Shown one piece after another: positions 4,239 to 63,941 of a stretch of 64,000 nt of DNA. The position numbers and the translations under genes were made by a program. Below the pieces are notes generated by a model that was not told the DNA's origin, searched no databases, and saw only the letters and a list, made by a program, of their open reading frames with translations. Within the stretch, counting starts at the first letter, position 1. Each line of letters opens with the position of its first letter. This stretch comes from an uncultured Mediterraneibacter sp. (GTDB lineage: Bacteria; Bacillota; Clostridia; Lachnospirales; Lachnospiraceae). The stretch is taken from positions 5,832 to 69,831 of the forward strand of contig CAKRDD010000018.1 in NCBI GenBank assembly GCA_934309345.1, in the 5' to 3' direction.

Positions 4239-4270
4239 ATTTTTTCCTCTCTTTCATCTCGCCTATTTCT

Positions 4271-4882
4271 CTATGCTTTAAAAAGATCATTTAATGACAT
4301 CTGCTCATACTGATATTCTTGTTCGACTTTTCTTTTCCCTTTTTTCCCACAAGCATTCTCTTTCTGAATGCAAATAATTTGCGCATTACTCAGATCACTC
4401 TCATACAACTTTTGTATATCTCTGATAGCCTGCTTACGTTTACCCTCGAATATTCGATGATTTAATCCCATATCTTGCTCTACTGATTTATACAATTCAC
4501 CTTTCACATACAGTCGATCTATAATATCATGTTCCTCCCCGATCAATGTTTGAAAGCATAGATATAATCTGTGAATTCCTTCAGCATGTATAGTAAGAAC
4601 ATGCATTTCAGCAGCTAATTGTTCTTCCTGCTCATTTACAAGCTTTTGGTATCTAAGGTATACATCTGCAAGATCTTTATGTGTTCCTCTTCCTCCACCT
4701 TCCTGGGACAAATCTATCTTTGGATAAGATGCCATTTCTATCGTTTGCTGTTGTACTTCATCTAATTTTTCCCGAATCTCAAGCACTTGTTTGTGTATCT
4801 GCTGGGTTAGTTCACTATGATGCCGAAGTACATCTTTAATTTTTTTACTATCCATTTTAAGATATCCGCCTTCTCCTGACAT
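4271..4882 (-). CDS. Putative transcription factor with a sigma-70 region-4-like / ArpU-like C-terminal HTH
   Basis: LIGEEHDIIDRLYVKGELYKSVEQDMGLNHRIFEGKRKQAIRDIQKLY fits the L..E..II..RY..G.S...IA..LG.S.RTV.R....A..KL pattern of region 4. Strong RBS aagggagggttcagATG. Confidence 0.55.
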   Translation of the reverse strand: MSGEGGYLKMDSKKIKDVLRHHSELTQQIHKQVLEIREKLDEVQQQTIEMASYPKIDLSQEGGGRGTHKDLADVYLRYQKLVNEQEEQLAAEMHVLTIHAEGIHRLYLCFQTLIGEEHDIIDRLYVKGELYKSVEQDMGLNHRIFEGKRKQAIRDIQKLYESDLSNAQIICIQKENACGKKGKRKVEQEYQYEQMSLNDLFKA

Positions 4883-14863: not shown

Positions 14864-14994
14864 AAAATCCGCCCCCTTTCATTTTTGAACACACTGATTA
14901 TCCTAGTCAATAAGTATCCGTTTTCTTTCCTACTTTCAATTCTGTATTTCTGAGTGGATTCCTTCTCTTGAAATGAGCCCCCCTCTTTGAAAGT

Positions 14995-15200
14995 GTAAGC
15001 GAGAACAGTTCTGCTGTTGCCATGGGCACATGTAAGGCAGGAGCGTTCCGAATACACTTTGTTCAGTATGTTAGTAAGAGCCAGACAGGCACCACACACG
15101 GTAACTGTTCTGGCTCTTACGTTACATACTTTCAAAGGGATGAGGTAGAGCGAGCCGGTGCTCGTGGTAATAGCAGGACTGATCTTGCGACCATTCTGTA
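14995..15200 (+). ncRNA. Copy A of an unclassified structured-RNA-like repeat
   Basis: Nearly identical to 42593-42800. The closing helix 15001-15029 / 15158-15188 contains four G-U pairs that work only for a plus-strand transcript. The extended hairpin is 15056-15136. The invariant unpaired segments are 15028-15055 and 15137-15157. There is no ATG, RBS or conserved frame. Confidence 0.5.
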
Positions 15201-15240
15201 AAGTGCTCATTCCCCATACGAATCCCCTCAAAAATACAAA

Positions 15241-17139: not shown

Positions 17140-17246
17140 AGACAAAGTGTCAATATGAATTTATACTGACACAACATTACAGTTTTCAGCGCATTGTCAA
17201 CTGTGATGATTTAACAACTTATATTCTTTTAATGGAGGGCAACACA

Positions 17247-17444
17247 ATGACAGGTACAGTAAAATGGTTTAATAACCAGAAGGGTTACGGATTTATCTCT
17301 GACGCTGAAGGAAATGACATTTTTGTTCATTATTCAGGACTTGTAATGGATGGATTCAAATCTCTCGAAGAGGGCCAGGCTGTTGAGTTCGAAGTAACAG
17401 AAGGCGCTAAAGGACCTCAGGCTGTTAACGTAGTGAAACTTTAA
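17247..17444 (+). CDS. Cold-shock protein (CspA family)
   Basis: [17 protein letters not shown] (RNP-1) and DIFVHYS (RNP-2). RBS ggaggg 8 nt upstream. I used the internal ATG rather than the ORF-track start at 17232. Confidence 0.95.
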
Positions 17445-17520: not shown

Positions 17521-17548
17521 AAAAAAGAGCTTTTTCAAGCTCTTTTTT
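17521..17548. terminator. Bidirectional intrinsic terminator between csp (+) and glyA (-)
   Basis: aaaaaagagc tttttcaa gctctttttt: a stem flanked by an A-run and a T-run. Confidence 0.75.
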
Positions 17549-17563
17549 GTTGCGCAAATCTTA

Positions 17564-18799
17564 TTAACAAAGTGGATATTTTGCAGTCAGCTCAGCAACC
17601 ATTGCTTTTGCTTTTTCTACATTCTCTTCGCTCTCGATTACCATTGCGATAATCTCTGCGATCTTATCCATATCATCTTCTTTCATTCCACGTGTTGTAA
17701 CAGCAGGTGTTCCAAGTCTTACACCGCTTGTTACGAACGGTGAACGAGGATCGTTCGGGATTGTATTCTTATTTGCTGTTACATGAGCATCATCCAGACG
17801 CTTCTCCAGTTCTTTTCCACTTGTCTCTGTTCCTGACAGATCTACAAGCATCAGATGGTTATCTGTATCTCCGGAAACAATCTTCACTCCGCGTGCTTTC
17901 AAACCATTGCAAAGTGCTTTCGCATTCTTAACAACCTGTTCCATGTATGTCTTATACTCCGGCTCAAGTGCTTCCTTGAAGCAGACTGCTTTTCCGGCAA
18001 TCACATGCATCAGCGGTCCTCCCTGGATTCCCGGGAATACAGCTTTGTTGAAATTGAACTTTTTGTTCATCTCTTCGCTGCACATGATCATTCCGCCTCT
18101 TGGTCCACGGAGTGTCTTATGTGTTGTTGTTGTTGTCACATGAGCATACGGAATCGGGCTTGGATGAAGTCCTGTAGCAACAAGTCCTGCAATGTGTGCG
18201 ATATCTACCATCAGGTATGCTCCCACCTCATCTGCAATCTCACGGAAACGTTTGAAATCAATCGTTCTTGCATAAGCACTTGCACCGGCAACGATCAGTT
18301 TCGGTTTATGCTCTTTCGCAATACGAAGCACTTCATCATAATCGATCACACCGTCTGCATTCACACCATAATGTGCTACATCAAAATATTTACCGGACAT
18401 ATTAACCGGTGAACCGTGTGTAAGATGTCCGCCGTGATCCAGGTTCATTCCCATGATCTTATCTCCCGGCTCAAGCATGGCAAACATAACTGCCATATTC
18501 GCCTGTGCTCCTGAATGTGGCTGCACATTGACATACTCACATCCAAACAGTTTCTTTGCTCTTTCTCTTGCAAGGTCTTCTACTACATCTACACACTGAC
18601 ATCCGCCATAATATCTCTTTCCCGGATATCCTTCTGCGTATTTATTCGTCAATGGGCTTCCCATAGCTGCCATGACTGCTTTACTCACCCAGTTCTCAGA
18701 GGCGATCAACTCGATATGGGAGTTCTGTCTCTCCATCTCTGCTTTTATCGCATCTGCTATCTCTGGGTCTGTGTTCATAATCTCATCGAAATCGTACAT
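17564..18799 (-). CDS. glyA: Serine hydroxymethyltransferase
   Basis: [14 protein letters not shown] is the PLP-lysine motif. The start is set at MYDFDEI (18799) with GGAGG 8 nt upstream. The ORF-track start at 18814 is also possible. Confidence 0.96.
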
Positions 18800-18845
18800 T
18801 ATCTCTTCCTCCATTAAAACGTTACCACGTCAAAGCGTTGTAGTC

Positions 18846-40691: not shown

Positions 40692-42182
40692 ATGCTTTAC
40701 GATGCAATCAAAAAATTAGTACAATATGGAATCAATACCGGAATCACTCCGGAATCTGAACGGATTTATACAACTAATCTTCTGCTGGATCTGTTCCACG
40801 AAGATAACTATGAAGACGTTGACTGTAACCTGGACAATCTCGTTCTGGAAGATATTCTTGCAGAACTTTTAGATATCGCCGCAGAGCGCGGAATCATTGA
40901 AAACAGCATCGGCTACCGTGATCTGTTTGACACAAAGCTGATGAATACACTGATGCCACGCCCATCACAGATCCAGCAGACTTTCTGGGAAAAATACAAA
41001 GTTTCTCCGGAGACAGCAACTGATTATTATTACAAATTAAGCCAGGACAGTGATTATATCCGCAGATACCGCATTGCCAGAGACCGCAAATGGACGGTTG
41101 ACACAGAATATGGCACTTTGGATATTACGATCAATCTTTCCAAACCAGAGAAAGATCCAAAAGCGATTGCAGCAGCAGGAAAAGCAAAATCCTCTTCCTA
41201 TCCAAAATGTCAGCTTTGCATGGAAAATGAGGGCTATGCAGGACGCCTTGATCATCCGGCTCGTGAGAACCACAGAATCATCCCGATCACAATTCAGGAT
41301 AATCCTTGGGGATTCCAGTACTCCCCTTATGTATACTACAACGAGCACTGTATCGTATTTAACGGACAGCATGTTCCAATGAAGATCGATCGTAATGCAT
41401 TTGAAAAGCTTTTTGATTTCATCAAACTTTTCCCACACTACTTCCTTGGATCCAATGCAGACCTTCCGATCGTTGGCGGTTCTATCTTAAGCCATGATCA
41501 TTTCCAGGGCGGAAATTATACTTTCGCAATGGCTAAAGCTCCGATCATTGAGCACTTTACTGTAAAAGGTTATGAAGATGTAACAGCCGGTATTGTAAAA
41601 TGGCCACTCTCTGTTATCCGTCTCCAGAGCAAAGAAGTAAAACCTCTGATTGATCTGGCTGAGCACATTTTAAACACATGGAGATCCTATACAGATGAAG
41701 ATGCTTTCATCTTCGCTGAGACAGACGACACGCCGCACAATACGATCACACCAATTGCAAGAAAGCGTGGAGACCTTTACGAACTTGACCTGACATTAAG
41801 AAACAATATTACAACAGAAGAACACCCACTTGGTGTTTATCATCCACACGCGAAGCTGCACCATATCAAGAAAGAAAACATCGGTCTTATTGAAGTAATG
41901 GGACTTGCTGTTCTTCCTGCACGACTGAAAGGTGAGATGGAACTTCTGAGAGATTACATCCTGACAGGAAAAGATATCCGCAGCAATGAGCAGATTGCAA
42001 AACACGCTGACTGGGTAGATGAATTCCTTCCAAATTATTCTTCCATCACAGAAGATAATGTTGAAGAGATCCTTCAGCAGGAAGTCGGAAAAGTATTCTG
42101 CGAAGTACTCGAAGACGCCGGGGTTTATAAATGTGATGAAAAAGGACTGGAGGCATTCCATCGTTTTGTAGGGGTGTTGTAA
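40692..42182 (+). CDS. galT: UDP-glucose--hexose-1-phosphate uridylyltransferase (type 2, ~500 aa)
   Basis: Length and motifs are those of the Gram-positive GalT type, including GGSILSHDHFQGG. It lies directly downstream of galK. Confidence 0.94.
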   Translation: MLYDAIKKLVQYGINTGITPESERIYTTNLLLDLFHEDNYEDVDCNLDNLVLEDILAELLDIAAERGIIENSIGYRDLFDTKLMNTLMPRPSQIQQTFWEKYKVSPETATDYYYKLSQDSDYIRRYRIARDRKWTVDTEYGTLDITINLSKPEKDPKAIAAAGKAKSSSYPKCQLCMENEGYAGRLDHPARENHRIIPITIQDNPWGFQYSPYVYYNEHCIVFNGQHVPMKIDRNAFEKLFDFIKLFPHYFLGSNADLPIVGGSILSHDHFQGGNYTFAMAKAPIIEHFTVKGYEDVTAGIVKWPLSVIRLQSKEVKPLIDLAEHILNTWRSYTDEDAFIFAETDDTPHNTITPIARKRGDLYELDLTLRNNITTEEHPLGVYHPHAKLHHIKKENIGLIEVMGLAVLPARLKGEMELLRDYILTGKDIRSNEQIAKHADWVDEFLPNYSSITEDNVEEILQQEVGKVFCEVLEDAGVYKCDEKGLEAFHRFVGVL

Positions 42183-42237
42183 TTTGTTGAACTTGGATTC
42201 ATTATCACTCAAATAAGTACTTTTTAGTAAAACAGAC

Positions 42238-42450
42238 GTGAGGAAGCCACTGTATTGCATCGGACACCGGCCCGCTTTACCTCATCCCTTTGACAATCTG
42301 TAACGAAAAAGCCAGAGCACTCACCGTGTGTGATTCGTGTCTGGCTTTTTCTAACAGATTCTGCAAAGTGTATTCGGAACGCTCCTGCCTTAAATGTGTC
42401 CTCAACAATACAGTGGCTCCCTCACTCGGCTTTTCAAATGAGTAAGTGCT
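42238..42450 (-). ncRNA. Copy C (diverged, inverted) of the structured-RNA-like repeat
   Basis: On the minus strand the two unpaired cores are conserved (acatttaaggcaggagcgttccgaatacacttt and tcaaagggatgaggtaaagcgggccggtg). The closing helix has an unrelated sequence but is still fully complementary (plus-strand 42238-42267 with 42396-42425). Confidence 0.5.
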
Positions 42451-42498
42451 ATTCCAAATGAAATGAATCCAGAAAACAAAATATGAACTTAAAGTGTT

Positions 42499-42544
42499 AA
42501 GGAAATGGGAACGCAATCAACTACGATGGTCTTCCCATTTCCTT
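42499..42544. repeat. Central 13-bp-stem palindrome between the inverted repeat copies C and B
   Basis: aaggaaatgggaa (42499-42511) pairs with ttcccatttcctt (42532-42544). A second inverted pair flanks it: aatccagaaaacaaa (42466-42480) and tttgttttctggatt (42543-42557). Confidence 0.7.
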
Positions 42545-42592
42545 TGTTTTCTGGATTTGTCTGATTGGAATTAAATATCTCGTTTGGAATAT

Positions 42593-42800
42593 GTAAGCAA
42601 GGACAGTCCTGCTGTTGCCACGAGCACATGTAAGGCAGGAGCGTTCCGAATACACTTTGTTCAGTATGTTAGTAAGAGCCAAAACAGGCACCACACACGG
42701 TAACTGTTCTGGCTCTTACGTTACATACTTTCAAAGGGATGAGGTAAAGCGGGCCGGTGCTCGTGGTAATAGCAGGGCTGGCCTTGCGACACCATTCTAT
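42593..42800 (+). ncRNA. Copy B of the structured-RNA-like repeat
   Basis: Differs from copy A at about a dozen positions by manual alignment. The closing helix is 42601-42629 / 42758-42783. It ends 18 nt before the convergent ilvA stop. Confidence 0.5.
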
Positions 42801-42817
42801 AGACTGTTTAATACCAA

Positions 42818-44032
42818 TTAGTACAGTTTCGCACTGATCAGTTTTGGTCTGAATCCTGCTTTATCGAGTGTATCGAGAATCTTTTTCTTATGATCTGTTC
42901 CGAATGCTTCCATTGTGATACGAAGCTCTACTGCTGCGTTTCTGTTTGTGCTTACAAACTGGTTATGTTCCAGTTTAATGATATTACCCTGTACGTCTGC
43001 GACTGTCTGTGCCACGCGTGCGAGTTCACCCGGCTTATCCGGAAGGAGTACGGATACGGAGAAGATACGGTCTCTCTGAATCAGTCCGTGCTGTACGATA
43101 GAGGACATTGTGATTACATCCATATTTCCACCACTTAATACACAGACTACTTTCTTTCCTTTGATGTCCATCTGCTTTAATGCAGCTACGGAAAGAAGTC
43201 CTGAATTTTCTACGATCATCTTATGATTCTCTACCATATCAAGAAATGCACCAATCAATTCATCATCTTCTACAAGAAGTACTTCATCTACATTTTCTTT
43301 CACATATGGGAGGATCTTATCTCCAACTTCTTTTACAGCTGTTCCATCTGCGATTGTATTCGCTGAAGGAAGTTCTACCGGCTCTCCTGCTTTCAGGGCT
43401 GCTGTCATGCTGGCTGCCTCTGACGGCTCTACACCAACTACTTTGATCTTTGGATTGAGCATCTTGGCAAGTGTGGAAACACCTGTGATCAGTCCGCCGC
43501 CACCGATCGGTGCAAGGATATAATCTACAGTCGGGAGTTCCTGAACAATCTCCATTGCGATTGTTCCCTGACCCGTAGCGACATCAAGGTCATTGAATGG
43601 ATGAACAAATGTATATCCGTTCTCTTCTGCAAGTTTGCACGCATGTGCGTAAGCATCATCATAAACATCTCCGTGAAGTACTACATCTGCTCCAAAGCTT
43701 TTTGTACGGTTTACTTTGATCAGCGGAGTAACTGTAGGCATAACGATCGTAGCTTTGCATCCAAACTGTTTTGCTGCAAATGCAACGCCCTGTGCATGAT
43801 TTCCTGCTGATGCTGTGATCAGTCCACGGCTTCTTTCTTCGTCTGTCAGTGTGCTGATCTTGTAGTATGCACCACGGATCTTATAAGCTCCTGTGTGCTG
43901 CATATTCTCCGGTTTTAAATAGACCTTTGCTCCTGTCTGTGCACTTAAGTATTCACTGTAAATAAGTTTTGTAGGATTTGTTACCTTTTTTACCAGTTCG
44001 CTAGCTTCTTCAAATTTCTCTAATGTCATCAT
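42818..44032 (-). CDS. ilvA: Threonine ammonia-lyase (threonine dehydratase), ~400-aa form with one C-terminal ACT-like domain
   Basis: HTGAYKIRGAY contains the PLP lysine. Also SAGNHAQGVA and GGGGLI. Confidence 0.92.
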   Translation of the reverse strand: MMTLEKFEEASELVKKVTNPTKLIYSEYLSAQTGAKVYLKPENMQHTGAYKIRGAYYKISTLTDEERSRGLITASAGNHAQGVAFAAKQFGCKATIVMPTVTPLIKVNRTKSFGADVVLHGDVYDDAYAHACKLAEENGYTFVHPFNDLDVATGQGTIAMEIVQELPTVDYILAPIGGGGLITGVSTLAKMLNPKIKVVGVEPSEAASMTAALKAGEPVELPSANTIADGTAVKEVGDKILPYVKENVDEVLLVEDDELIGAFLDMVENHKMIVENSGLLSVAALKQMDIKGKKVVCVLSGGNMDVITMSSIVQHGLIQRDRIFSVSVLLPDKPGELARVAQTVADVQGNIIKLEHNQFVSTNRNAAVELRITMEAFGTDHKKKILDTLDKAGFRPKLISAKLY

Positions 44033-51727: not shown

Positions 51728-52924
51728 TTATTTTACAAGCGCTAATGTCTCACGGGCAATTGCAAGTTCTTCGTTTGTAGGAATAACGAATACTTTAACT
51801 TTTGATCCTTCTTTTGTAAGCTCTGCTTCTTTTCCTCTGAGTCCTGTATTCACTTCTGAATCAAAGTCTACTCCGAGGTATCCGAGGTATTTACATACTT
51901 CTTCTCTTACGTAATCATCGTTCTCACCGATACCAGCTGTGAATACGATATCGTCTACACCGTTCATTGCTGCTGCGTAAGATCCGATATATTTTGCTAC
52001 TCTGTAGGAGAATACATCCATAGCGATTGTTGCTTTCTTATCTCCTGCGTTCATAGCATCTGTAAGATCACGGAAGTCACTGGAAAGTCCGCCTGAGATT
52101 CCAAACACACCAGATTTCTTATTCAGGACATTCATAACACCATCGATATCAAGGTTCTCTTTCTTAGCGATGAACTCCATGATTGCTGGATCGATATCTC
52201 CTGAACGTGTTCCCATTACAAGTCCTTCAAGTGGAGTAAGTCCCATAGAAGTATCTACACATTTTCCATTGAGAACTGCACTTACACTGGAACCATTTCC
52301 AAGGTGGCATACGATTGTCTTCACTTCATCGTAAGGTCTTCCCATTACTTCTGCTGCTCTCTTAGATACAAAGCTGTGGCTTGTTCCGTGGAAACCATAA
52401 CGTCTTACTTTGTATTTCTCATAATACTCATATGGAAGTCCGTACATATAAGCCTTCTCTGGCATTGTCTGATGGAAAGCTGTATCAAATACTGCAACCA
52501 TAGGTGTTCCTGGCATCAGTTTCTCACATGCTGCAACACCGATCAGGTTTGCCGGGTTATGAAGTGGTGCAAGATCATTACACTCTTCTACTGCTTTCTT
52601 TACTTCGTCTGTGATTACTACAGATGAAGCAAACTTCTCTCCACCATGTACGAGACGGTGTCCAACTGCTCCGATCTCATCAAGGCTCTTAACAACTCCT
52701 GTCTTCTCATTTGTCAGAGCATCAATTACAAACTGAATTGCTTCTGTATGAGTTGGCATAGCCAGATCAGATTTCTCTTTCTCTCCGCCAGCCGGCTGAT
52801 ATGTCAGACGTCCGTCGATTCCAATTCTCTCACAAAGTCCTTTTGCAAGTACATCCTCTGTCTCAGCATTGATCAGCTGGAATTTCAGAGATGAGCTTCC
52901 GCAGTTGATTACTAATACGTTCAT
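51728..52924 (-). CDS. ackA: Acetate kinase
   Basis: VLVINCGSSSLKF, RRYGFHGTSH, and FTAGIGEN. Confidence 0.97.
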   Translation of the reverse strand: MNVLVINCGSSSLKFQLINAETEDVLAKGLCERIGIDGRLTYQPAGGEKEKSDLAMPTHTEAIQFVIDALTNEKTGVVKSLDEIGAVGHRLVHGGEKFASSVVITDEVKKAVEECNDLAPLHNPANLIGVAACEKLMPGTPMVAVFDTAFHQTMPEKAYMYGLPYEYYEKYKVRRYGFHGTSHSFVSKRAAEVMGRPYDEVKTIVCHLGNGSSVSAVLNGKCVDTSMGLTPLEGLVMGTRSGDIDPAIMEFIAKKENLDIDGVMNVLNKKSGVFGISGGLSSDFRDLTDAMNAGDKKATIAMDVFSYRVAKYIGSYAAAMNGVDDIVFTAGIGENDDYVREEVCKYLGYLGVDFDSEVNTGLRGKEAELTKEGSKVKVFVIPTNEELAIARETLALVK

Positions 52925-53040
52925 TTTCTTTTTTCCTCCTGAAAAAACCTTATTCTTATTATCCGAGGGCAGCTTACACTACCCTCTTTGTTTCTTTTGA
53001 TTACCCGTAACTATTTTTAAAGATCTGTAAACAATTACAA

Positions 53041-54036
53041 TTATTCAGCCTGTGCCTGTACAGCTGTGATAGCTACAACGCCTACGATATCTTCAGCGCT
53101 GCACCCACGGGAAAGGTCGTTAACCGGAGCGGCGATTCCCTGTGTCAGAGGACCGTAAGCTTCTGCTTTAGCAAGTCTCTGAACAAGTTTGTATCCAATG
53201 TTACCAGCATCAAGGTCTGGGAATACAAGTACGTTAGCATGTCCTGCAACCTTGCTTCCCGGTGCTTTGGACTCTCCAACAGCCGGAACGATTGCAGCAT
53301 CAAGCTGAAGTTCTCCGTCAAGAGCAAGCTCTGGTGCAAGTTCCTGAGCGATCTTTGTTGCCTCAACAACTTTATCTACATCTGCATGCTTAGCACTTCC
53401 CTTTGTTGAGTGAGAAAGCATAGCAACAACTGGCTCTTTCTCAACAAGCAGTTTGAAAGAATCTGCAGAAGAAATAGCGATGTTCGCAAGTTTCTCCGGA
53501 TCCGGATTCTGCTCAAGTCCTGCATCAGCAAAGATGAATGTTCCGTTTGCTCCCATGTCGCAGTTCGGTACTACCATAAGGAAGAATGCGGATACAAGCT
53601 TTGTTCCCGGTTTTGTCTTCAGGATCTGAAGGCATGGACGAAGTGTATCTGCTGTAGAGTGGCATGCACCTGATACCATTCCGTCTGCATCACCCATCTT
53701 AACCATCATTACACCATAGTATAAGTAGTTGCTAAGAAGCAGTTCTTTTGCCTGCTCAGGAGTCATTCCCTTTTTCTGTCTTAACTCAACAAGTTTTGCA
53801 ATATATCCTTCTGTTCTTGCATCTGTTGCAGGATCTACGATTGTTGCACCGGAGATGTCGTATGTACCTTTGTTCTTCTCAATCTCCTCTTTGCTTCCTA
53901 CAAGCACCAGATCAGCAAGTCCCTCTTTCAGTACTGTCTCTGCTGCTTTATAAGTTCTTTCGTCTTCTGTCTCTGGAAGAACGATTGTCTTTTTGCAAGC
54001 TTTTGCTCTTGCTTTGATTTCATCAATAAATCCCAT
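53041..54036 (-). CDS. pta: Phosphate acetyltransferase (PTA_PTB catalytic domain only)
   Basis: 331 aa. GADGMVSGA and the C-terminal SRGCSAEDIV. It lies directly upstream of ackA. Confidence 0.95.
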   Translation of the reverse strand: MGFIDEIKARAKACKKTIVLPETEDERTYKAAETVLKEGLADLVLVGSKEEIEKNKGTYDISGATIVDPATDARTEGYIAKLVELRQKKGMTPEQAKELLLSNYLYYGVMMVKMGDADGMVSGACHSTADTLRPCLQILKTKPGTKLVSAFFLMVVPNCDMGANGTFIFADAGLEQNPDPEKLANIAISSADSFKLLVEKEPVVAMLSHSTKGSAKHADVDKVVEATKIAQELAPELALDGELQLDAAIVPAVGESKAPGSKVAGHANVLVFPDLDAGNIGYKLVQRLAKAEAYGPLTQGIAAPVNDLSRGCSAEDIVGVVAITAVQAQAE

Positions 54037-54200
54037 GATTTAATGCCACCTTTCTTTTTATCTCACTTGGCTCTATTATAACGCAATCGTTTTTTGTATA
54101 CAAGTCATTTTATGTGCATTTTCAAATACAATCCGCACTTTGTAACAGGATATTTGTAAGATTGTTACAGTTTTATCAAACATTGTCTTTTTCCAGAAAC

Positions 54201-54250
54201 AATAAGAGCCGGAACAGACACCACTCATGGTAACTATTCTGGCTCTTATT
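54201..54250. repeat. Stand-alone copy of the hairpin module found inside repeat copies A and B, placed where the tmcAL terminator should be
   Basis: aataagagccggaacag acaccactcatggtaa ctattctggctcttatt matches taagagccagacag gcaccacacacggtaa ctgttctggctctta at 15075-15119, including the loop. It starts 6 nt after the TAG stop at 54256. Confidence 0.65.
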
Positions 54251-54255
54251 AAAAT

Positions 54256-55542
54256 CTACACCTTCAAAATCCCCTGCTTATATTCATTTTGAAACGCTGT
54301 CTTAAACTTATCCGTCACCACTGAGGTATACAGATTTGAAGCAAGCATATCATGCCTGAGCATTTTCTGACCAAGTTCCGGAAGATCTTCGATTTCAGAC
54401 ATTTTCGTCAAAACCGGAAGACTGCTTTCCTTTGACATAGCTGCCAGCAGCTTTGCATTGTCTTTTCGAAAACCAAGCAGACGTGCATACATATGATAGC
54501 CATTGTCAATATATTCTTCCACATTTGCTTTCTTCGTTCCAAGCATAATATGAAGCAGCGCACGGTTAACTCTGGTCTGTGTGAGTTCTCGCGTTTTCAG
54601 TAGATCACAGAACTGTTTATAATTAAAGAAGTTATTTAGCTGATTCGCAATTCTGGATGCGATCTCCGGGGAGACATCCACATATCGAACCAGACTTTCC
54701 GGCTGTTTATTTAACAGTTTATATTTCAAAATCAAAGAAAAATCATTCTGTGAAATCGGATACTGTACTTTATGATAATCCTTCAAAAGTTCCAGACAAC
54801 ATTTTGGAACCTGGTTTTCCAACTCTGACAGTATTCCCGAAAGCGAAAGCTCATCGTAATTTCCTTCTACCGGTTCTGTATTGAAAGATGAACTTGAATA
54901 AGCAAGCAGTGAACGAATTGCCGTAGCGGAACTGTAATCACTGTCCAGTTCTTCATCATGATACTGTGCACCACGCCTTGCAATCGTATAAGGTTCCATC
55001 CTGCTTCCAATTTTTTTGATTGCTTTCAGATATTCAATTCCTAAAATATTATTCGGATTTCTTAAAATCTCTGCAAACCGAGAATCTTCTGTATAAGAAA
55101 GAATCGCTTCCTGTCTGGCGCGCGGGAAAGACATCCCTTGTTTCAGATAATCTTTCAACAGAATCTGATAGGCTTCAGGTTCTTCAAGAAGAAGTTCTGC
55201 AAGCTGTTCCATACTCGGAAGGTCATCACATTCACTGCCAAAACAGATAGAATCAACAATTCCAAGAGACTCTAAAAGAGATACTGCTCCAAGTGCAAAA
55301 AGCTCCGCTGATCCCGTCGCATAGCAGACCGGAAGTTCAAAGACAGCTCCAGCGCCACACATCAGCGCCATCTCTGCACGTATCCTTTTAGGCATGATTG
55401 CAGGTGTTCCCCGCTGCACATAGTCACCACTCATAACGACAACGGCCGCATCTGCACCGGTTACACGCAAAGATTCTTTAATATGATAAAGATGTCCATT
55501 GTGAAATGGATTATATTCTGTAATAAGACCAACGATTTTCAT
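54256..55542 (-). CDS. tmcAL: tRNA(Met) cytidine acetate ligase (UPF0348 / YlbM-type nucleotidyltransferase)
   Basis: MKIVGLITEYNPFHNGHLYHI contains the HxGH nucleotidyltransferase motif. Length ~430 aa. Confidence 0.85.
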   Translation of the reverse strand: MKIVGLITEYNPFHNGHLYHIKESLRVTGADAAVVVMSGDYVQRGTPAIMPKRIRAEMALMCGAGAVFELPVCYATGSAELFALGAVSLLESLGIVDSICFGSECDDLPSMEQLAELLLEEPEAYQILLKDYLKQGMSFPRARQEAILSYTEDSRFAEILRNPNNILGIEYLKAIKKIGSRMEPYTIARRGAQYHDEELDSDYSSATAIRSLLAYSSSSFNTEPVEGNYDELSLSGILSELENQVPKCCLELLKDYHKVQYPISQNDFSLILKYKLLNKQPESLVRYVDVSPEIASRIANQLNNFFNYKQFCDLLKTRELTQTRVNRALLHIMLGTKKANVEEYIDNGYHMYARLLGFRKDNAKLLAAMSKESSLPVLTKMSEIEDLPELGQKMLRHDMLASNLYTSVVTDKFKTAFQNEYKQGILKV

Positions 55543-55555
55543 AACAGTTACCAGA

Positions 55556-56416
55556 TTACAATCTCTTCATACAAGTAATCGCCAGTGCCCCCGGACCAAT
55601 ATGGCAGGCCACGCTCAATGACAATTGTCCTTCCATAATCTCATATCCCGGAAACCTTTCTTCGATCTCCGCTTTCCACTCCTGTGCTTCTTCTTTACTG
55701 CATGTATAAGCCATACCAAGAACCATCTGATCCTTAACATCTGCAAAGCGTCCATTCAGATCTTTCTCGATCGCATTTAGCATTGTCTTCTTCGCTGTTT
55801 TCCAGCCTCTTGCTTTAGAAAATGCATCCAGCTTTTCTCCCTGGATCTGAAGAACAGGCTTTAAGTTAAGCACCGTTCCGATCGCCGCTGCCGCCGGTGT
55901 GATTCTTCCACCTTTTTTCAGGTATTTTAAAGTATCAACCGTAATATAAATGCTTGCCTGAAGTTTTTCTTTCTCCAGTATTTCTTTAATCTCTGCTGCA
56001 CTCTTTCCTTCTTCACGCAGATTCATTGCATCCAGAACAGACTGCTCCTGTGTAACTGAAATTCTCTGATTATCAACCACTTGAACGCGTCCGTCATATT
56101 CAGCCGCAAGAGTAATTGCTGTTGCACATGTGCTGCTCAAGCCACTAGACATCGGAATACATACAAGCTCATCATATTCTTCCAGAACTTTATCCCAAAG
56201 ATCCATGACCTCTCCCGGTGACGGCTGGGATGTTGAAATGTCAGAATCTGCTCCGAGCTTTTCATAAAATTCACTTTGGGAAAGTGTGATATCCTCCAGA
56301 TAAAGTTCTCCATCAATAAAAAATGGCATCGGAAGGACAAAAATCCCCAGTTCTTTTCCTCGTTCCTGTGTTATACCGCTATTACTATCCGTTACAATTG
56401 CAACTTTACTCATCAA
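55556..56416 (-). CDS. DegV-family fatty-acid-binding protein
   Basis: VAIVTDSNSGI at the N-terminus and the C-terminal HIGPGALA are typical of DegV. Confidence 0.92.
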   Translation of the reverse strand: MMSKVAIVTDSNSGITQERGKELGIFVLPMPFFIDGELYLEDITLSQSEFYEKLGADSDISTSQPSPGEVMDLWDKVLEEYDELVCIPMSSGLSSTCATAITLAAEYDGRVQVVDNQRISVTQEQSVLDAMNLREEGKSAAEIKEILEKEKLQASIYITVDTLKYLKKGGRITPAAAAIGTVLNLKPVLQIQGEKLDAFSKARGWKTAKKTMLNAIEKDLNGRFADVKDQMVLGMAYTCSKEEAQEWKAEIEERFPGYEIMEGQLSLSVACHIGPGALAITCMKRL

Positions 56417-56427
56417 ATTTCTCCCTA

Positions 56428-57792
56428 TTAATTCTTAAAACTATGAATTGGAGCCGGAATACGTCCCTGTCTGTTAATAAACGCATCACATCCGAATTCA
56501 TTCACCGGCATAATTGGTGCATATCCTAACAATCCGCCAAATTCTGCCACATCTCCAACATCCTTACCAATAACCGGTATCAGACGCACTGCTGTTGTCT
56601 TCTGGTTGACCATACCGATTGCCATCTCATCTGCGATAATTCCTGAGATTGTCGCTGCTGATGTCTTTCCAGGGATTGCGATCATATCAAGTCCTACAGA
56701 GCATACGCATGTCATTGCCTCTAACTTTTCAAGTGTAAGAGAGCCTGCATTTACTGCATCGATCATTCCCTGGTCTTCACTGACCGGAATAAATGCACCG
56801 CTGAGTCCACCTACATAAGAAGATGCCATAACGCCGCCCTTCTTCACCTGGTCATTGAGCATTGCAAGTGCTGCTGTTGTTCCAGGTGCACCAACGCGCT
56901 CCAGTCCGATCTCCTCCAGAATCTCTGCAATACTGTCACCAACTGCCGGAGTCGGAGCAAGTGAAAGATCGATGATTCCAAATGGAATTCCAAGACGTGC
57001 GGAAGCCTCTCCTGCAACAAGCTGTCCTACTCGTGTAATCTTAAACGCTGTCTTCTTAATTGTTTCACAGAGTTCTTCAAAACCTTTTCCACGTGCTTTT
57101 TCAATCGCTTTCTTTACAACTCCCGGTCCACTGACACCTACATTAATAATCGTATCTGCCTCAGTTACACCGAGGAATGCACCTGCCATAAACGGGTTAT
57201 CATCCGGTGCATTGCAAAGAATAACAAGCTTTGCACAGCCAAGAGAATCTCTGTCTTTCGTTGCCTCTGCCGCTTCTTTCACAATCTGTCCACACAGACG
57301 GACTGCATCCATATTAATACCTGTCTTTGTTGATCCCACATTGACAGAACTACAGATTCTCTCTGTCTCGGCCAGTGCCTGTGGAATTGAACGGATCAGA
57401 TTCTCTTCACTTGGTGTCATTCCTTTCGACACAAGCGCGGAGTATCCGCCAATGAAGTTTACGCCAACCTTTTCCGCTGCGCGGTCAAGTGTGCGTGCGA
57501 TTGTCACATAATCTTCCGGAGTCTTACACGCTGCTGCTCCAACAAGCGATACAGGTGTAATTGAAATTCTCTTATTTACGATCGGAATTCCGAATTCTTT
57601 CTCAATGTCTTTTCCTGTAGATACAAGATCTTTTGCAACTGTTGTAATTTTCTCATAAATCTTACGGTTCAGTTCATCCAGATCAGAATCCACACAGTCC
57701 AACAGACTGATTCCAAGAGTGATCGTGCGGACATCAAGGTTCTCGCTCTCGATCATCTTATTGGTTTCTGATACTTCATACATATTAATCAT
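56428..57792 (-). CDS. UPF0210 / DUF711 (PFL-like) family protein
   Basis: ~450 aa. The N-terminal [10 protein letters not shown] motif and pairing with an upstream ACT-domain UPF0237 gene are characteristic. Confidence 0.85.
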
Positions 57793-57821
57793 AGTCTTAT
57801 CCTCACCTTATCTCCGACTGC

Positions 57822-58094
57822 TTACAGACGGTGCATTTTTTCAAAAATCTCTTCTCTCTGGCAGTGAATTGTTACACCGATCTCTTTGCCAAGTGCATCC
57901 ATCTCATCACAAATTTCTTTGAAATCTTTCTTCAGATTCGCAACATCCACGATCATCATCATGTTGAAATATCCCTGAACAATTGTCTGTGAAATATCAA
58001 GAATATTTATTTCATTTTCTGCAAGATATGTACATACTTTTGCAATAATTCCTACTGTGTCTTCTCCAAGTACTGTGACAATACATTTCTTCAT
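57822..58094 (-). CDS. ACT-domain protein (UPF0237)
   Basis: MKKCIVTVLGEDTVGIIAKVCTYLAE. The start is set at 58094 (RBS ggagg). Confidence 0.85.
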   Translation of the reverse strand: MKKCIVTVLGEDTVGIIAKVCTYLAENEINILDISQTIVQGYFNMMMIVDVANLKKDFKEICDEMDALGKEIGVTIHCQREEIFEKMHRL

Positions 58095-58127
58095 TCTTTC
58101 TGTACCTCCGCTTTGATTCACTCAATT

Positions 58128-58925
58128 TTATACATTAATAATATCCGAAACTGATTCCCGGCTTGCAACGAACATATTCAGGTCTTCCCCTTTATATTCA
58201 TTATCTGCAAGCGTAACTTCCAGCTTCACTGTCTCATAAGCAAGTCTTGCGTAATTGTTCTCCTTGCTCAGGTGACCAAGCATGATGTGTTTCAGATTAT
58301 CATGTAGTATATCACAAAGAAGCTGTCCTGACAATTCATTTGATAAATGACCGCGATCACCAAGAATTCTCTGCTTCAAATAATATGGATATCCTCCGAC
58401 TTCCAGCATATGGATATCATGGTTTGCTTCCAGAAGGATCGCATCCAGATTTTTCAGATTCTCCACTGTATAATCATCATATTTCCCAAGATCTGTTGCA
58501 ACTGCTACGGACTTCCCACCTTGTTCAATCCGATACCCGGACGGTTCATTTGCATCATGGGAAATAGCAAATGGGTGTACATCCAGTTCACCAAGCTGAA
58601 ATGGGTGATCTGCCTTGATCGGATGCAAAAGTCCTTCCGGCATCTTTCCAAGACTGGAAGATTCTTTGATTCCTGCAATCGTTCCGGGAGTCGCATAAAT
58701 CGGGATCTCATACTTTCTGCTGAACACACCAAGTCCTTTGATATGATCCGAATGTTCATGTGTGATCAGAATCCCATCGAGTTCGTCCCCTTTAATTTCC
58801 AGCTTATTCAGACCTTCTTCAATTCGTTTCTTACTAATTCCCGTATCAATCAGCAGATGGGAATTATCACTTCCTACATAAATACAGTTTCCACTGCTGC
58901 CGCTTGCAATACTGCACATTCTCAT
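58128..58925 (-). CDS. MBL-fold metallo-hydrolase
   Basis: ITHEHSDHIKG is the HxHxDH motif. Confidence 0.85.
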   Translation of the reverse strand: MRMCSIASGSSGNCIYVGSDNSHLLIDTGISKKRIEEGLNKLEIKGDELDGILITHEHSDHIKGLGVFSRKYEIPIYATPGTIAGIKESSSLGKMPEGLLHPIKADHPFQLGELDVHPFAISHDANEPSGYRIEQGGKSVAVATDLGKYDDYTVENLKNLDAILLEANHDIHMLEVGGYPYYLKQRILGDRGHLSNELSGQLLCDILHDNLKHIMLGHLSKENNYARLAYETVKLEVTLADNEYKGEDLNMFVASRESVSDIINV

Positions 58926-59506
58926 TTGTTCAATCTATCTCCTATTTGTCTCTTTGTTGCTTCAAAATCTCCACTATTATCAATTACAACTGTGCATGCT
59001 TTTCGAAATGCTTCTTCTGCCGGTTGTGAAGCAATCATCCTGGTGATCTTTTCATCTGTATAATGTCTGGAACTTTTCAGTCGTTCTCTGCGGACTGCTT
59101 CATCTGTGTAAATATACCACAGCTCATCACACAGTTCCTTCCCAACTTCCGGAAGAAGTGCTGCTTCTACTATATAATAAGAGCAGCACTCTTCTTTTTT
59201 CTTTAAAATATCTTTCTGAACCCATTCCAGCACTTCCGGATGCACAATGTCATTCAATATTTGTAATTTCTTCTCATCTGCAAATACGCAGCTTCCAAGT
59301 TTCATGCGATCCAGTTCGCCATCATTTCCAACAATCTGTTCACCAAATTCCTGTACGATTCTCGTAAATGCCCGTGTCCCTTTCTTCTGGATCTGCTTTG
59401 CAACTTCATCCATCTGGCAGACTACCGCACCGTATTCCTGTTCGAGGAATTTTAAAACTTCACTTTTCCCGGATCCAACTCCGCCTGTAATTCCAATTAC
59501 TTTCAT
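58922..59506 (-). CDS. coaE: Dephospho-CoA kinase
   Basis: MKVIGITGGVGSGKS contains the P-loop. The start is set at 59506 (RBS gagg), adjacent to the polA stop. Confidence 0.92.
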   Translation of the reverse strand: MKVIGITGGVGSGKSEVLKFLEQEYGAVVCQMDEVAKQIQKKGTRAFTRIVQEFGEQIVGNDGELDRMKLGSCVFADEKKLQILNDIVHPEVLEWVQKDILKKKEECCSYYIVEAALLPEVGKELCDELWYIYTDEAVRRERLKSSRHYTDEKITRMIASQPAEEAFRKACTVVIDNSGDFEATKRQIGDRLNK

Positions 59507-59507
59507 C

Positions 59508-62123
59508 TTATTTTGCCTCATACCAGTTCTTCCCTGTATGCATATCTACACTGAGCGGAACTGACAATTCTGCAGCGTGTTCCATCTTATCCTGAAGAAT
59601 CTGCTGTACTTCTTCTAATTCTGTTTCATCCGCTTCGATCAAAAGCTCATCATGCACCTGAAGGATCATCCGTGATTTCAGATTTCTCTTCTTCAATTCC
59701 TCATTTACATGAATCATTGCAATCTTAATGATATCTGCAGCAGTTCCCTGGATCGGTGCATTCATTGCCACGCGCTCTCCAAAGTTTCTCTGCATAAAAT
59801 TGCTGGATTTTAATTCTGGCATCGGCCGTCTTCTTCCGTACAAAGTCTCTGCATATCCTTTTTCTTTTGCATCGCTTACACATTTATCAAGAAATGTTTT
59901 GATTCCCGGATAAGATTCAAAATAATGCTCGATATACTGCGCCGCCTCTTTTCTCGAAATACTCAAATCCTGGCTCAGTCCAAAAGAACTGATTCCATAC
60001 ACAATACCGAAATTAACTGCTTTTGCATTTCTTCTCTGCAGATCTGTCACTTCATCAAATGGTACGTGGAATACCTGGGAAGCTGTCATCCGATGAATAT
60101 CTCTCGCTTCACGATATGCCTGGATCAGCTGCTCATCACCGGAACAATGCGCCAGAATACGAAGCTCGATCTGAGAGTAATCCGCATCCACAAAGACACA
60201 ACCTTCTTTTGGCACAAATACTTTACGGATCAAACGTCCAAGTTCCATACGCACCGGGATATTCTGCAGATTCGGTTCTGTACTGCTGATACGTCCTGTA
60301 GCTGTGATCGTCTGATTAAATTTACTGTGGATTCTTCCATCCATTCCGATATAATTCGCAAGTCCGTCTGCATATGTTGACTTCAGTTTTGCAAGCTGAC
60401 GATACTCCAAAATCTTTGCTACAATAGGATATTCCGGTGCAAGTTTATCCAACACATCCGCTGCTGTAGAATACCCGGTCTTTGTCTTCTTTGCATGAGG
60501 CATTTCCAGTTTTTCAAAAAGAATCACGCCAAGCTGTTTTGGAGAATTGATATTAAACTCTTCCCCTGCCATTTCATAAATCTCTTTTTCCAGCTCAACG
60601 ATTCTTGCTCCAAGCTCTTCTCCGTAACGCTTCAGCTCTTCACCTTCAACTTTAACACCAGCCTGTTCCATATCATACAATGTAAATACTAACGGCATTT
60701 CAATTTCATTAAATAAACAGAACATTCCAGTCTCTTCCAGTTTCTTCTCAAGAACCGGTACACAAGCATAAGCTGTATATGCCTCGTAACATGATTTTGT
60801 ACCCTCATCAAGTTTTTCATCAATCAGAAGATTCAAATGTTCTCTTGCCACATCTTCTGCATTGTAATCATTTTTCAGAGGATTCAGAAGATATGCTGCC
60901 ACGATCGCGTCAAACCCGTTCTCACTTGTAAGCTCCGGCAGCCATTCCAGATATTCTTTCAATCCACACATCGAGAAACATTTCACGCATTTCGCAAGGT
61001 GAGATAGTTTTCCTGTCAGATACTCAAAATCAGCATCCATATCACAAGGAATCGTAACAATCTTTTCTGCTTCATAGCAAAGAGAAATACGTCCATATCC
61101 AGAAGCATGTGCAAACAGCGGAAGTACATTTCCTGCATCTTTGGAAAATGCTACTCCGACAGTTTCTGCTTTTTCCGCCTCTTTAAAGACTTTCTCTATC
61201 TCCTTTTTCCCTGTTATCTCACAGAAATATTTTTCCACATCATTCACTGACGCTTCTACATCAAATCTTCCAAGCAGATTTTTAAACTCCAGTCTTTGGA
61301 ATAATTCATGGGCTTCTTTTGTATAAGGATTCTCATGGCGGGCATTTTCAATCTCAAACGTAATATCTGCGTCCAGTTTAATCGTCGCAAGTGTCTTACT
61401 AAGCTGTGCCTGCTCCCAGAATTCTTTCAGATTCTTGCTTGCTCTTGGCGGTTTCAGTTCATCAACATGCTCGTACGCATTTTCAATCGTCTGGTACTGC
61501 TGAATGATCTTTGTCGCTGTCTTTTCACCAACTCCCGGAACTCCTGGAATATTATCAGCAGTATCACCCATCAAAGCCTTTACATCAATAAATTCCTTCG
61601 GTGTTACACCATAACGTTCCTGCACATCTGACGCATAATAATCTTCTACTTCTGTCTTCCCCTGCTTCGTCTTTGGAATACGGATCTTAATATGCTCTGT
61701 CGCAAGCTGAAGCGTATCACGGTCTCCGGAAATAATGGAAACATCCATTCCATTCTCCTCACAACGATGAGACAAGGTTCCCAGAAGGTCATCCGCCTCA
61801 AGTCCGGCCTTTTCAATCACTTCTATATGCATTGCACGCAGAACGTCCTTGATTACAGGCACCTGCTGACGCAGTTCCTCTGCCATTGGCTTTCTTGTAC
61901 CTTTATAATCTGCAAACATCTCATGTCGAAATGTCGGCGCATGCACATCAAATGTAACCGTCAGATATTCCGGTTTCTCTTCATCTAATATCTTAAACAT
62001 AATATTCAGGAATCCATAAACTGCGTTCGTATGCAGTCCTTCCGAATTCGTCAGATCCGGAACTCCGTAAAACGCCCGGTTCAATATACTGTGTCCATCG
62101 ATCAGTACTATTTTATCTCTCAT
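59508..62123 (-). CDS. polA: DNA polymerase I
   Basis: The 5'-3' exonuclease region includes LIDGHSILNRAFY. Polymerase motif A is DYSQIELRILAH, motif B is RRNAKAVNFGIVYG, and motif C is QVHDEL. The start is set at MRDKIVL (62123, RBS ggagag). Confidence 0.97.
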   Translation of the reverse strand: MRDKIVLIDGHSILNRAFYGVPDLTNSEGLHTNAVYGFLNIMFKILDEEKPEYLTVTFDVHAPTFRHEMFADYKGTRKPMAEELRQQVPVIKDVLRAMHIEVIEKAGLEADDLLGTLSHRCEENGMDVSIISGDRDTLQLATEHIKIRIPKTKQGKTEVEDYYASDVQERYGVTPKEFIDVKALMGDTADNIPGVPGVGEKTATKIIQQYQTIENAYEHVDELKPPRASKNLKEFWEQAQLSKTLATIKLDADITFEIENARHENPYTKEAHELFQRLEFKNLLGRFDVEASVNDVEKYFCEITGKKEIEKVFKEAEKAETVGVAFSKDAGNVLPLFAHASGYGRISLCYEAEKIVTIPCDMDADFEYLTGKLSHLAKCVKCFSMCGLKEYLEWLPELTSENGFDAIVAAYLLNPLKNDYNAEDVAREHLNLLIDEKLDEGTKSCYEAYTAYACVPVLEKKLEETGMFCLFNEIEMPLVFTLYDMEQAGVKVEGEELKRYGEELGARIVELEKEIYEMAGEEFNINSPKQLGVILFEKLEMPHAKKTKTGYSTAADVLDKLAPEYPIVAKILEYRQLAKLKSTYADGLANYIGMDGRIHSKFNQTITATGRISSTEPNLQNIPVRMELGRLIRKVFVPKEGCVFVDADYSQIELRILAHCSGDEQLIQAYREARDIHRMTASQVFHVPFDEVTDLQRRNAKAVNFGIVYGISSFGLSQDLSISRKEAAQYIEHYFESYPGIKTFLDKCVSDAKEKGYAETLYGRRRPMPELKSSNFMQRNFGERVAMNAPIQGTAADIIKIAMIHVNEELKKRNLKSRMILQVHDELLIEADETELEEVQQILQDKMEHAAELSVPLSVDMHTGKNWYEAK

Positions 62124-63858: not shown

Positions 63859-63941
63859 TGCCGCTGGCCGGACTCGAACCGGCACGGCTACTAACCGCTT
63901 GATTTTGAGTCAAGTGCGTCTGCCAATTCCGCCACAGCGGC
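63859..63941 (-). tRNA. tRNA-Leu (anticodon CAA), type II with a long variable arm, no encoded CCA
   Basis: The minus strand reads gccgctgtggcggaattggcagacgcacttgactCAAaatcaagcggttagtagccgtgccggttcgagtccggccagcggca. The acceptor stem is GCCGCTG/CAGCGGC, the anticodon stem is cttga/tcaag around loop ctCAAaa, and the T-arm is gccgg-ttcgagt-ccggc. Confidence 0.93.

Follow-up and report, generated by a model that had tools for sequence, protein, structure and literature searches.

A family of giant palindromic repeats at gene 3′ ends in Mediterraneibacter, with a two-arm cassette in the galT–ilvA gap

The galT–ilvA gap and its repeat family

The 635-bp gap between the convergent genes galT and ilvA was analysed in a stretch of 64,000 nucleotides (hereafter the window) from an uncultured Mediterraneibacter sp. 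(assembly GCA_934309345.1, contig CAKRDD010000018.1, positions 5,832 to 69,831 of the forward strand), which over 8 kb is 91% identical to [Ruminococcus] (= Mediterraneibacter) faecis JCM 15917. From the galT stop codon to the ilvA stop codon the gap is made up of two ~200-nt units and a central hairpin (Table 1). The units, copy or arm C on the minus strand and copy or arm B on the plus strand, lie head to head around the 13-bp stem of that hairpin, as an initial annotation made from the sequence had described them, and its view of the whole gap as one large imperfect palindrome is borne out by a self-complementarity of 72% over the 635 nt. The leader that it assigned to both units was also found, since the 15-mer TTTGTTTTCTGGATT precedes each of them and occurs exactly twice in the window.

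The outer ends of the gap are occupied by the element itself. The 18 nt that directly follow the galT stop codon, TTTGTTGAACTTGGATTC, are the M. faecis form of a terminal inverted repeat (TIR) of the family, AAATTCGTGTTTGTTGAA, which in other alleles pairs with a right TIR, AATCCAAGTTCAACAAAC; the same 18 nt delimit standard, one-arm, and flipped alleles alike. Complete cassettes are bounded by these short TIRs on the stop codons of two convergent genes, and the window copy keeps only the left one: alignment with L085–L087 and with alleles of 693–698 nt shows that the tail of arm B is truncated and that the right TIR (…AATCCAAGTTCAACAAACAC…) is missing. The commonest allele, of 657 nt, lacks it as well. 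Having lost the right TIR, the window allele is probably locked and no longer invertible. In the centre, a T-rich tail follows the hairpin on the plus strand (the galT strand) only, in which respect the hairpin resembles a one-directional terminator; it was missed by the terminator scan because its loop is too large.

Table 1. Features of the galT–ilvA gap and related features elsewhere in the window (window coordinates)
Feature	Position	Strand	Remarks
Copy A, solitary type 1 arm	14930-15240	+	Leader 14930-15003; P1 15004-15021/15172-15187; unit at ~14978-15209
Classical bidirectional terminator AAAAAAGAGCTTTTTCAAGCTCTTTTTTG	17521-17549		Between cold-shock gene (17232-17444, plus) and glyA (17564-18814, minus)
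galT	ORF 40692-42182; stop TAA 42180-42182	+	Pfam GalP_UDP_transf on identical protein; element abuts stop directly
Left TIR TTTGTTGAACTTGGATTC	42183-42200		Directly after galT stop; exact AATCCAAGTTCAACAAA match on minus strand
Arm C, type 1 unit	42201-42450	-	Sense on minus strand; 53 of 62 consensus pairs formed
Arm C tail	42201-42238	-	
Arm C P1	42404-42421/42239-42254	-	
Arm C internal hairpin	42238-42267/42396-42425		Repeat finder
Arm C 3′ core GGGATGAGGTA	42278-42288	-	
Arm C apex hairpin	42305-42351	-	A-run and T-run on its sides
Arm C 5′ core GGAGCGTTCCGAA	42373-42385	-	
Inverted arms, 88 nt	42253-42340/42684-42771		82% complementary (repeat finder)
Inverted arms, 57 nt	42342-42398/42625-42681		86% complementary (repeat finder)
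Central module	42450-42573		Lower stem 42450-42480/42543-42573
15-mer before arm C	42466-42480	-	
15-mer before arm B	42543-42557	+	
Central hairpin	42499-42518/42525-42544		Repeat finder; perfect 13-bp stem 42499-42511/42532-42544
T-rich tail TGTTTTCTGG	42545-42554	+	After central hairpin
Arm B leader	42543-42596	+	TTTGTTTTCTGGATT...TTGGAAT...TTTGGAATATGTAAGC; left TIR in its place in one-arm alleles
Arm B, type 1 unit	42597-42790	+	Sense on plus strand; 54 of 62 consensus pairs formed
Arm B internal hairpin	42597-42627/42757-42787		Repeat finder
Arm B P1	42602-42619/42771-42786	+	
Arm B P2	42623-42629/42757-42767	+	
Arm B core helix	42638-42647/42743-42755	+	
Arm B P4	42650-42659/42732-42740	+	
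Arm B P5	42663-42669/42723-42729	+	
Arm B apex	42672-42719	+	
Arm B tail, truncated	42791-42817	+	Alignment with L085-L087 and 693-698-nt alleles
ilvA (threonine dehydratase)	ORF 42818-44032; stop 42818-42820	-	Pfam PALP and ACT; element abuts stop
Solitary 46-nt hairpin	54203-54248	+	87% identical to apex of arms A and B; repeat family D4

The units recur outside the gap. The 27-nt core AGGCAGGAGCGTTCCGAATACACTTTG has three matches in the window against none in 100 shuffles, the third lying in copy A, and the three copies A, B, and C are all the matches that nhmmer returns in the window (E-values 1e-37 to 1e-39). A family scan with the exact core motifs GGAGCGTTCCGAA...GGGATGAGG, one genome per species, yielded 81 loci, every one in Mediterraneibacter or closely related Lachnospiraceae, with 13 to 24 or more loci per metagenome-assembled genome in three chicken-gut species and many copies at contig ends. 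As an account of the gap, duplication of a local sequence by chance, or a common bidirectional terminator that belongs to no family, has a negligible probability: a gap between convergent genes is expected to hold a terminator, and one relative has a plain terminator there, but this reading is refuted by the 81 related loci elsewhere, together with the strong covariation and the conservation above silent sites described below.

No relevant match was obtained in Rfam 15 at the gathering threshold, which in the window is passed by a tRNA-Leu alone, and permissive Rfam scans of the gap and two sister cassettes gave only generic hairpin (miRNA) matches far below threshold. Nothing similar to the element was found in plasmid, phage, and viral-contig collections, and searching the literature by organism, by keywords, and with the exact sequences of core and TIR brought up no relevant work. 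No ORF is common to the copies, either inside or upstream; no autonomous partner was seen in or beside them or within ~600 kb of loci, no genome-wide search having been made, and no RAYT (a Y1 HUH transposase) was present among the window genes examined or beside the copies. The family is a non-coding mosaic repeat that is genus-specific, multicopy, and previously undescribed.

The head-to-head arrangement recurs in Ca. M. surreyensis and Ca. M. intestinigallinarum, where the core motifs are spaced by ~260 nt compared with 253 nt in the window. Eleven ~685-nt cassettes are ~90% or more conserved from end to end, including the centre, a GC-rich hairpin with an A-run and a T-run on its sides, and their conservation stops sharply at AAATTCGTGTTTGT...ACAAACACGAATTT. 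A second subfamily of ~740 nt joins a type 1 arm to a different long hairpin, and an A-run/T-run hairpin like that of the window is central in both of these other subfamilies. In the basal stem of an arm the terminal repeat pairs with a second, internal copy, which gives four occurrences of the repeat in the order a...a′...a...a′, and in the sister subfamilies this stem begins ~8 nt after the central terminator-like hairpin. The suggestion that the gap is an inverted repeat cluster resembling a bacterial interspersed mosaic element (BIME) agrees with this multicopy mosaic of palindromic units, which alternate around a linker hairpin at gene 3′ ends.

Fold, polarity, and conservation of the arms

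Each arm is a giant imperfect hairpin with a core of ~190 nt, extending up to ~330 nt when the basal stem is included. A structure alignment of 32 non-redundant units (<90% identity to each other) gave 62 consensus pairs by RNAalifold, and compensatory double changes were found in 45 of them; cells of the alignment were paired in 95.9% of cases, compared with 78.5% in column shuffles and 34–50% when the partners were slid by 1–3 columns. Covariation is heavy in helices P1, P2, P4, and P5 and in the apical stem. The compensatory changes keep the helices of one strand, as is found in a structured single-strand element, whether RNA or single-stranded DNA (ssDNA). Invariance is seen in an asymmetric core, whose 5′ strand carries GAGCGUUCCGAA and whose 3′ strand carries UGAGG..AGCGGG, and in one internal loop, UGUUA(G)/GUUACA. 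By visual comparison, the core does not seem to fit a hammerhead, k-turn, T-loop, or loop E motif. Two types of arm are distinguished by coordinated changes in the helix adjacent to the core (AUACAC/GGGGAU vs. AAAGCA/AUCUUU).

The outward polarity that had been proposed from G-U pairs is supported by both stability and substitution pattern. In all but one of 92 arms, the strand written from the 5′ core to the 3′ core is more stable than its complement, the mean folding energies being -101 and -87 kcal/mol, respectively; for unit B, the values are -108 kcal/mol (z = -11) for the plus strand and -94 kcal/mol for the minus strand. At the variable positions of the arms, 102 G-U pairs stand against 32 A-C pairs, and the excess is found in each arm's own sense, although paired arms sit on opposite DNA strands. 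A replication-strand mutation bias as the source of the excess is excluded by these opposite-strand arms, and since both arms of a pair show it in their own sense, the excess reflects selection on folding. The arm has therefore been selected to fold as a single strand of set polarity, running from the centre of the cassette toward the neighbouring gene.

Such a polarity would also fit two independent small RNA (sRNA) genes that diverge from a central bidirectional promoter and each end at the stop codon of a neighbour, as the initial annotation envisaged. The outward-pointing sense strands, the 15-mer common to B and C, and the conserved leaders (that of copy A is 98.5% identical between lineages) agree with this. 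So does copy A, which lies between ptsI and nfeD, both on the minus strand, with its tail reaching the ptsI stop codon (15241-15243): its sense strand is antisense to both neighbours and therefore cannot belong to either mRNA, so that it would need a promoter of its own. (Folding as single-stranded DNA on the lagging-strand template was also considered; judged by how the genes of the window are oriented, the sense strand of copy A is presumably on the leading-strand template, a single case that is not decisive.) The idea of a divergent pair was not supported by the promoter analysis, in which consensus scans, limited to sigma-70-like promoters, found none in the gap, a weak negative. The arm of the other subfamilies begins ~8 nt past the central hairpin and leaves no promoter space, a 3-nt indel in the leader of copy A alters the spacing of its two TTGAAA motifs, and a better account of the "leader" is that it combines the T-rich tail after the central hairpin with one strand of the arm's basal stem. 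Two separate sRNA genes are regarded as unlikely.

The arms are more conserved than the silent sites around them. Between the window and JCM 15917, the copy A hairpin differs at 3 of 196 positions (98.5% identity), compared with 89% identity at third codon positions of the flanking ptsI and 87% at those of nfeD. Arm B and its leader are 96.2% identical to those of L085, the two strains having 97% GalT identity, compared with 82% at the third positions of galT and ilvA; the differences in arm B include a compensating G-C to A-T change and a C-to-T change by which a G-C pair becomes G-U on the sense strand. Measured in this way the arm evolves ~4–8 times more slowly than silent sites and is under purifying selection.

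Ends on stop codons, alleles, and inversion

The ends of the element coincide with stop codons in most of the copies that could be surveyed. The ends of the element read T[AG]A-AAATTCGTGTTTGT, or TTTGTTGAACTTGGATT in M. faecis, and among the TIR-like anchors examined, 85 have a long ORF running toward them. The stop codon ends 0–3 nt before the conserved TTCG in 52 of these 85 anchors, usually straddling the junction (T/AA or TG/A), and 5–8 nt before it in 19; the incoming ORF enters the element in only eight. Most elements lie between convergent genes, where both ends touch stop codons and no spacer remains, and the sense strand of the arm is convergent with the gene wherever a gene adjoins. 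Three candidate causes of this placement are a target preference (the flank at -4 to -8 is almost never C), microhomology with the A-rich end of the element, and long-term erosion of a useless spacer between two constrained features. In 21 full elements the junctions showed no direct repeats that could represent a target-site duplication. Insertion at TA or TTAA was rejected as well: a fixed TA is excluded by the junction logo, in which T reaches only 42% at position -4.

Comparison of the spacer in related strains, which the initial annotation had proposed, revealed two-unit, one-unit, collapsed, and flipped forms, and only a plain terminator in a distant relative. The galT site is still occupied across lineages with 87–100% GalT identity; relatives at 87–91% have a minus-strand arm downstream of galT, with contigs that stop inside it. 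In Mediterraneibacter relatives at 85% GalT identity (L092–L097, positions 3992–4276), an unrelated giant hairpin of ~285 nt follows galT and fills the gap to a convergent fumarase gene; its two alleles are 82% identical with compensatory stem changes, and it is not matched by the arm profile (nhmmer) and thus constitutes a separate family. Giant stop-to-stop hairpins therefore appear to be widespread in the genus as a whole. At 80% GalT identity, the gap of a relative is 89 nt long and contains an ordinary terminator. Presence and absence also differ at other genes: the glyA orthologs of two other species (L041 and L068) have a 750-nt element on the stop codon, whereas the window glyA has the plain terminator of Table 1. 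As a side observation, the GalT homologs P0002 (L098, 2501–4273), P0016, and P0072 were called at 541–590 aa compared with 496 aa, perhaps through an alternative start or a fused ORF.

When metagenome contigs were scanned for the galT end and the TIR, 89 human-gut contigs (L099–L187) were recovered. Complete gaps, including that of the window, number 53, and are divided into 35 two-arm "-+" cassettes (613–698 nt), about 10 one-arm "+" forms (249–326 nt), four minus-arm-only forms (462–485 nt), and four collapsed hybrids (268 or 305 nt). In the one-arm allele a single giant hairpin, closed at its base by the TIR pair, spans the whole distance between the two stop codons; relative to this allele, the window has 322 nt extra, comprising arm C and the centre, with direct TGGATT repeats at the bounds. 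The other 37 of the 89 contigs end inside the element, as do the contigs L083, L084, and L088–L091, a few tens to hundreds of nt past galT. Short-read assemblies are thus interrupted by the repeat or by heterogeneity in the way it is oriented.

Four of the 35 two-arm cassettes (L099, L102, L187, and L158) are inverted between the same 18-bp TIRs, as are two partial contigs; L158, for example, has an identity of 0.91 to the window when flipped and 0.72 in the same orientation. The flipped alleles are found on two galT backgrounds, the main haplotype cluster (<2% divergence) and the window's own lineage (the galT background of L158 is 2.4% from the window), and the inversion has therefore recurred or been moved by recombination. 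Of seven orthologous sites compared between the two chicken-gut species and in another pair of species, four are flipped. In one flipped species pair the outermost TIR base remains with the flank, and another copy has matching variants in both TIRs (AATACG...CGTATT). An assembly artefact behind the flips is unlikely, as arm-specific bases start within ~20 nt of the unique flank, inside one k-mer. A "+-" arrangement was never seen among the alleles and loci compared; because the cassette is quasi-symmetrical, its outward-reading design survives flipping. The sequences compared show that the cassette has been rearranged through recombination among the repeated ends, with whole flips, deletion to one arm, and collapse of two arms as the outcomes.

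These flips raise the possibility of a regulatory inverton, in which a site-specific invertase would turn the cassette between its 18-bp TIRs and, with a central terminator working in one direction only, the orientation would choose which gene is terminated at the centre and which reads through. Both orientations at one locus within one species, on two galT backgrounds, the flipped orthologous sites, and a crossover inside the terminal repeat fit such a switch, as does the one-strand T-rich tail of the central hairpin in the window, and 18 bp is short for RecA-dependent inversion. The flipped alleles are, however, ~9–10% diverged from the unflipped ones, which suggests old or rare events and not rapid switching; the commonest alleles, including that of the window, lack the right repeat; neither a promoter inside the cassette nor an invertase came to light; and the near-equivalent arms leave the "-+" architecture unchanged by a flip. 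A regulatory inverton is thus held to be unlikely here, on a par with the pair of sRNA genes.

Recombination at the repeats may extend beyond the cassette. Synteny breaks between window positions 51978–60323 and Ca. M. intestinigallinarum or surreyensis (L037, L032, and L069) coincide with copies of the element, and the orthologs of the window genes 54256–55542 and 55556–56416 are element-ended there and no longer adjacent. The repeats may mediate rearrangements.

A non-autonomous mobile element without host function, similar to miniature inverted-repeat transposable elements (MITEs) or REPINs, would explain several of the same observations. In this case the stop-codon position would result from target choice and purging, and the giant hairpins would be ssDNA substrates of a trans-acting enzyme of HUH/RAYT-like or integrase-like type. 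The family has many copies, each with sharp limits and TIRs; orthologous genes such as glyA may or may not carry one; contigs break inside it; and a copy can be 99% identical between species, more than its flanks (89–93%). A strand-specific fold, conserved unpaired bases, and a position next to the stop codon and antisense to the upstream gene are by analogy also what is found in attC sites, and G-T pairs are tolerated in DNA hairpins too. Several points speak against selfish DNA: the absence of a target-site duplication and the poor fit of a TA target, the absence of an autonomous partner or ORF in or beside the copies, and the lack of anything similar in plasmids, phages, and viral contigs. 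Moreover, orthologous copies keep their copy-specific differences and are still 4–8 times more conserved than silent sites, where an insertion that was fixed but inert would be expected to decay; galT has kept its element across lineages with 87–100% GalT identity; and a multi-loop structure of 200–330 nt is far beyond the needs of known hairpin-recognising transposases. Selfish DNA is accordingly judged unlikely, though it deserves more credit than an inverton or sRNA genes.

Interpretation, known systems, and other features of the window

The reading preferred here, with moderate confidence and near an even chance, is that of a BIME/MITE-like mosaic cassette, invertible by recombination, whose structured single-strand modules, probably RNA, serve as a terminator or insulator at gene 3′ ends. 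From the sequence comparisons, we infer both this 3′-end function and the action of the folded strand as RNA. At convergent genes the central hairpin would end the incoming transcript; the distal sense arm, as a very stable structured RNA that is sometimes followed by a U-rich tract, would halt or mark any read-through before it enters the neighbouring gene in antisense, and the conserved loops could bind a putative factor. Relatives without the element carry a plain terminator at the same place.

Several observations weigh against this reading. The evidence from folding fits RNA and ssDNA alike, and the gap contains neither a sigma-70-like promoter nor, by the same consensus scans (other sigma factors not covered), a canonical terminator. 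For termination or a roadblock alone, the invariant core is needlessly elaborate. The sense arms are not followed consistently by U-tracts: C-type arms and B alleles with a long tail have good ones, whereas copy A and the window arm B have none. The statement in the initial annotation that no T-runs follow the helices holds only in part, since TGTTTTCTGG follows the central hairpin on the plus strand, the apex of arm C has its A-run and T-run, and TCTGTTTTACT comes after the sense strand of arm C. Copy A, absent from the mRNA of either neighbour, is left unexplained by a read-through model. The copies might also look more conserved than they are as a result of gene conversion between them, and the sharp ends and high similarity between copies also fit a selfish mobile element.

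A bolder version of the terminator/insulator reading takes the arms as an undescribed class of structured RNA (~190–330 nt) with a factor-binding core (GAGCGUUCCGAA / GUUA-GUUAC / UGAGG..AGCGGG), set in a flippable stop-codon cassette that is placed by a recombinase and acts as a switchable, mobile "anti-antisense insulator". This is speculative and distinctly improbable, somewhat more so than selfish DNA; if it were true, the one-directional central terminator would let the orientation of the cassette set which convergent gene reads through.

Repeats of the REP, BIME, BOX, and MITE kinds are known mainly from Proteobacteria and streptococci, have short units, and are of debated function. In function and architecture, the closest analogue of the present family is BIME/REPIN, followed by BOX-, ERIC-, and Correia-type repeats. 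In common with REP, BIME, and REPIN sequences, the elements are extragenic and multicopy, with palindromic units that alternate in orientation and are joined by linker motifs; they are concentrated where genes end and in the gaps of convergent pairs, often a few nt from stop codons; and their units are asymmetric with a defined "head", roles in termination or mRNA stability having been proposed for the known repeats. They differ in that the units are 5–10 times longer (190–330 nt vs. 20–40 nt), have an invariant multi-loop core and no GTAG or CGTC head, and reside in a Firmicute host with no RAYT identified among the genes examined, and in that the cassette has its own TIRs and flips as a whole. 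Pneumococcal BOX, enterobacterial ERIC, and Neisseria Correia repeats are likewise non-coding, <1 kb, multicopy, and modular; they form long stem-loops when transcribed, show presence/absence polymorphism, and can supply terminators or processing sites. In contrast to these, the present elements have no duplication of TA or another target and have ends that overlap stop codons, show strand-specific covariation and purifying selection at orthologous sites, and occur as two-arm, one-arm, and flipped alleles at one locus. With MITEs they share the TIRs and the small non-coding body but not the target-site duplication.

Integron attC sites resemble the arms in being imperfect palindromes in which structure prevails over sequence, one strand folds, and unpaired bases are conserved, and in starting on, or just at, the stop codon of the preceding ORF, to which the folding strand is antisense. 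However, the arms are 200–330 nt long compared with 57–141 nt, and they adjoin housekeeping genes in conserved synteny, whereas attC sites are found in cassette arrays beside an integrase; an R-box-like GTTGAAC/GTTCAAC is seen only in the M. faecis form of the TIR. Invertons are similar in consisting of a segment of a few hundred bp between inverted repeats of 15–30 bp that is found in both orientations at one locus; the cassettes differ from them in having no sigma-70-like promoter inside by the scans, in their position between gene 3′ ends, in their many near-identical copies per genome, and in a quasi-palindromic interior, so that a flip keeps the architecture. Bidirectional intrinsic terminators share the position, the central hairpin with its A-run and T-run, and the terminator-like apices of the arms, but the present elements are ten times larger, belong to a repeated family, and have an invariant non-helical core.

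The family is best placed among the dispersed palindromic 3′-end repeats, from which it stands out by its giant, covarying, polarised units, ends that abut stop codons, and inversion of the whole cassette. The family comes from a genus abundant in the human and chicken gut, and its units are ten times the size of REP sequences; the covariation is as strong as that of riboswitches and polarised to one strand, and purifying selection is clear at orthologous sites. The two-arm, one-arm, collapsed, flipped, and absent forms constitute a natural allelic series at one housekeeping locus, through which the old question of selfish DNA versus a host 3′-end device becomes testable in the cultivable M. 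faecis JCM 15917. On the practical side, the cassettes break metagenome assemblies.

Elsewhere in the window, the solitary hairpin of Table 1 lies 7 nt past the stop codon (54256-54258) of the minus-strand HIGH-nucleotidyltransferase gene 54256–55542, and on the mRNA strand it is followed by TTGTTTCTGG, the T-rich motif that also follows the central hairpin of the pair. It is probably the terminator of that gene, and it may be a remnant of an arm or represent the type of terminator from which the apices of the arms derive; the ortholog of the gene in Ca. M. intestinigallinarum (L069) has a full element at its stop codon. A 222-nt direct repeat (305–526 and 3981–4202) has copies that are 80% identical and 3676 bp apart, one of which overlaps the 5′ part of the minus-strand ORF 3759–4238, and this probably reflects paralogous genes. 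The sole Rfam or ARAGORN match in the window is a tRNA-Leu(CAA) on the minus strand at 63859–63941.

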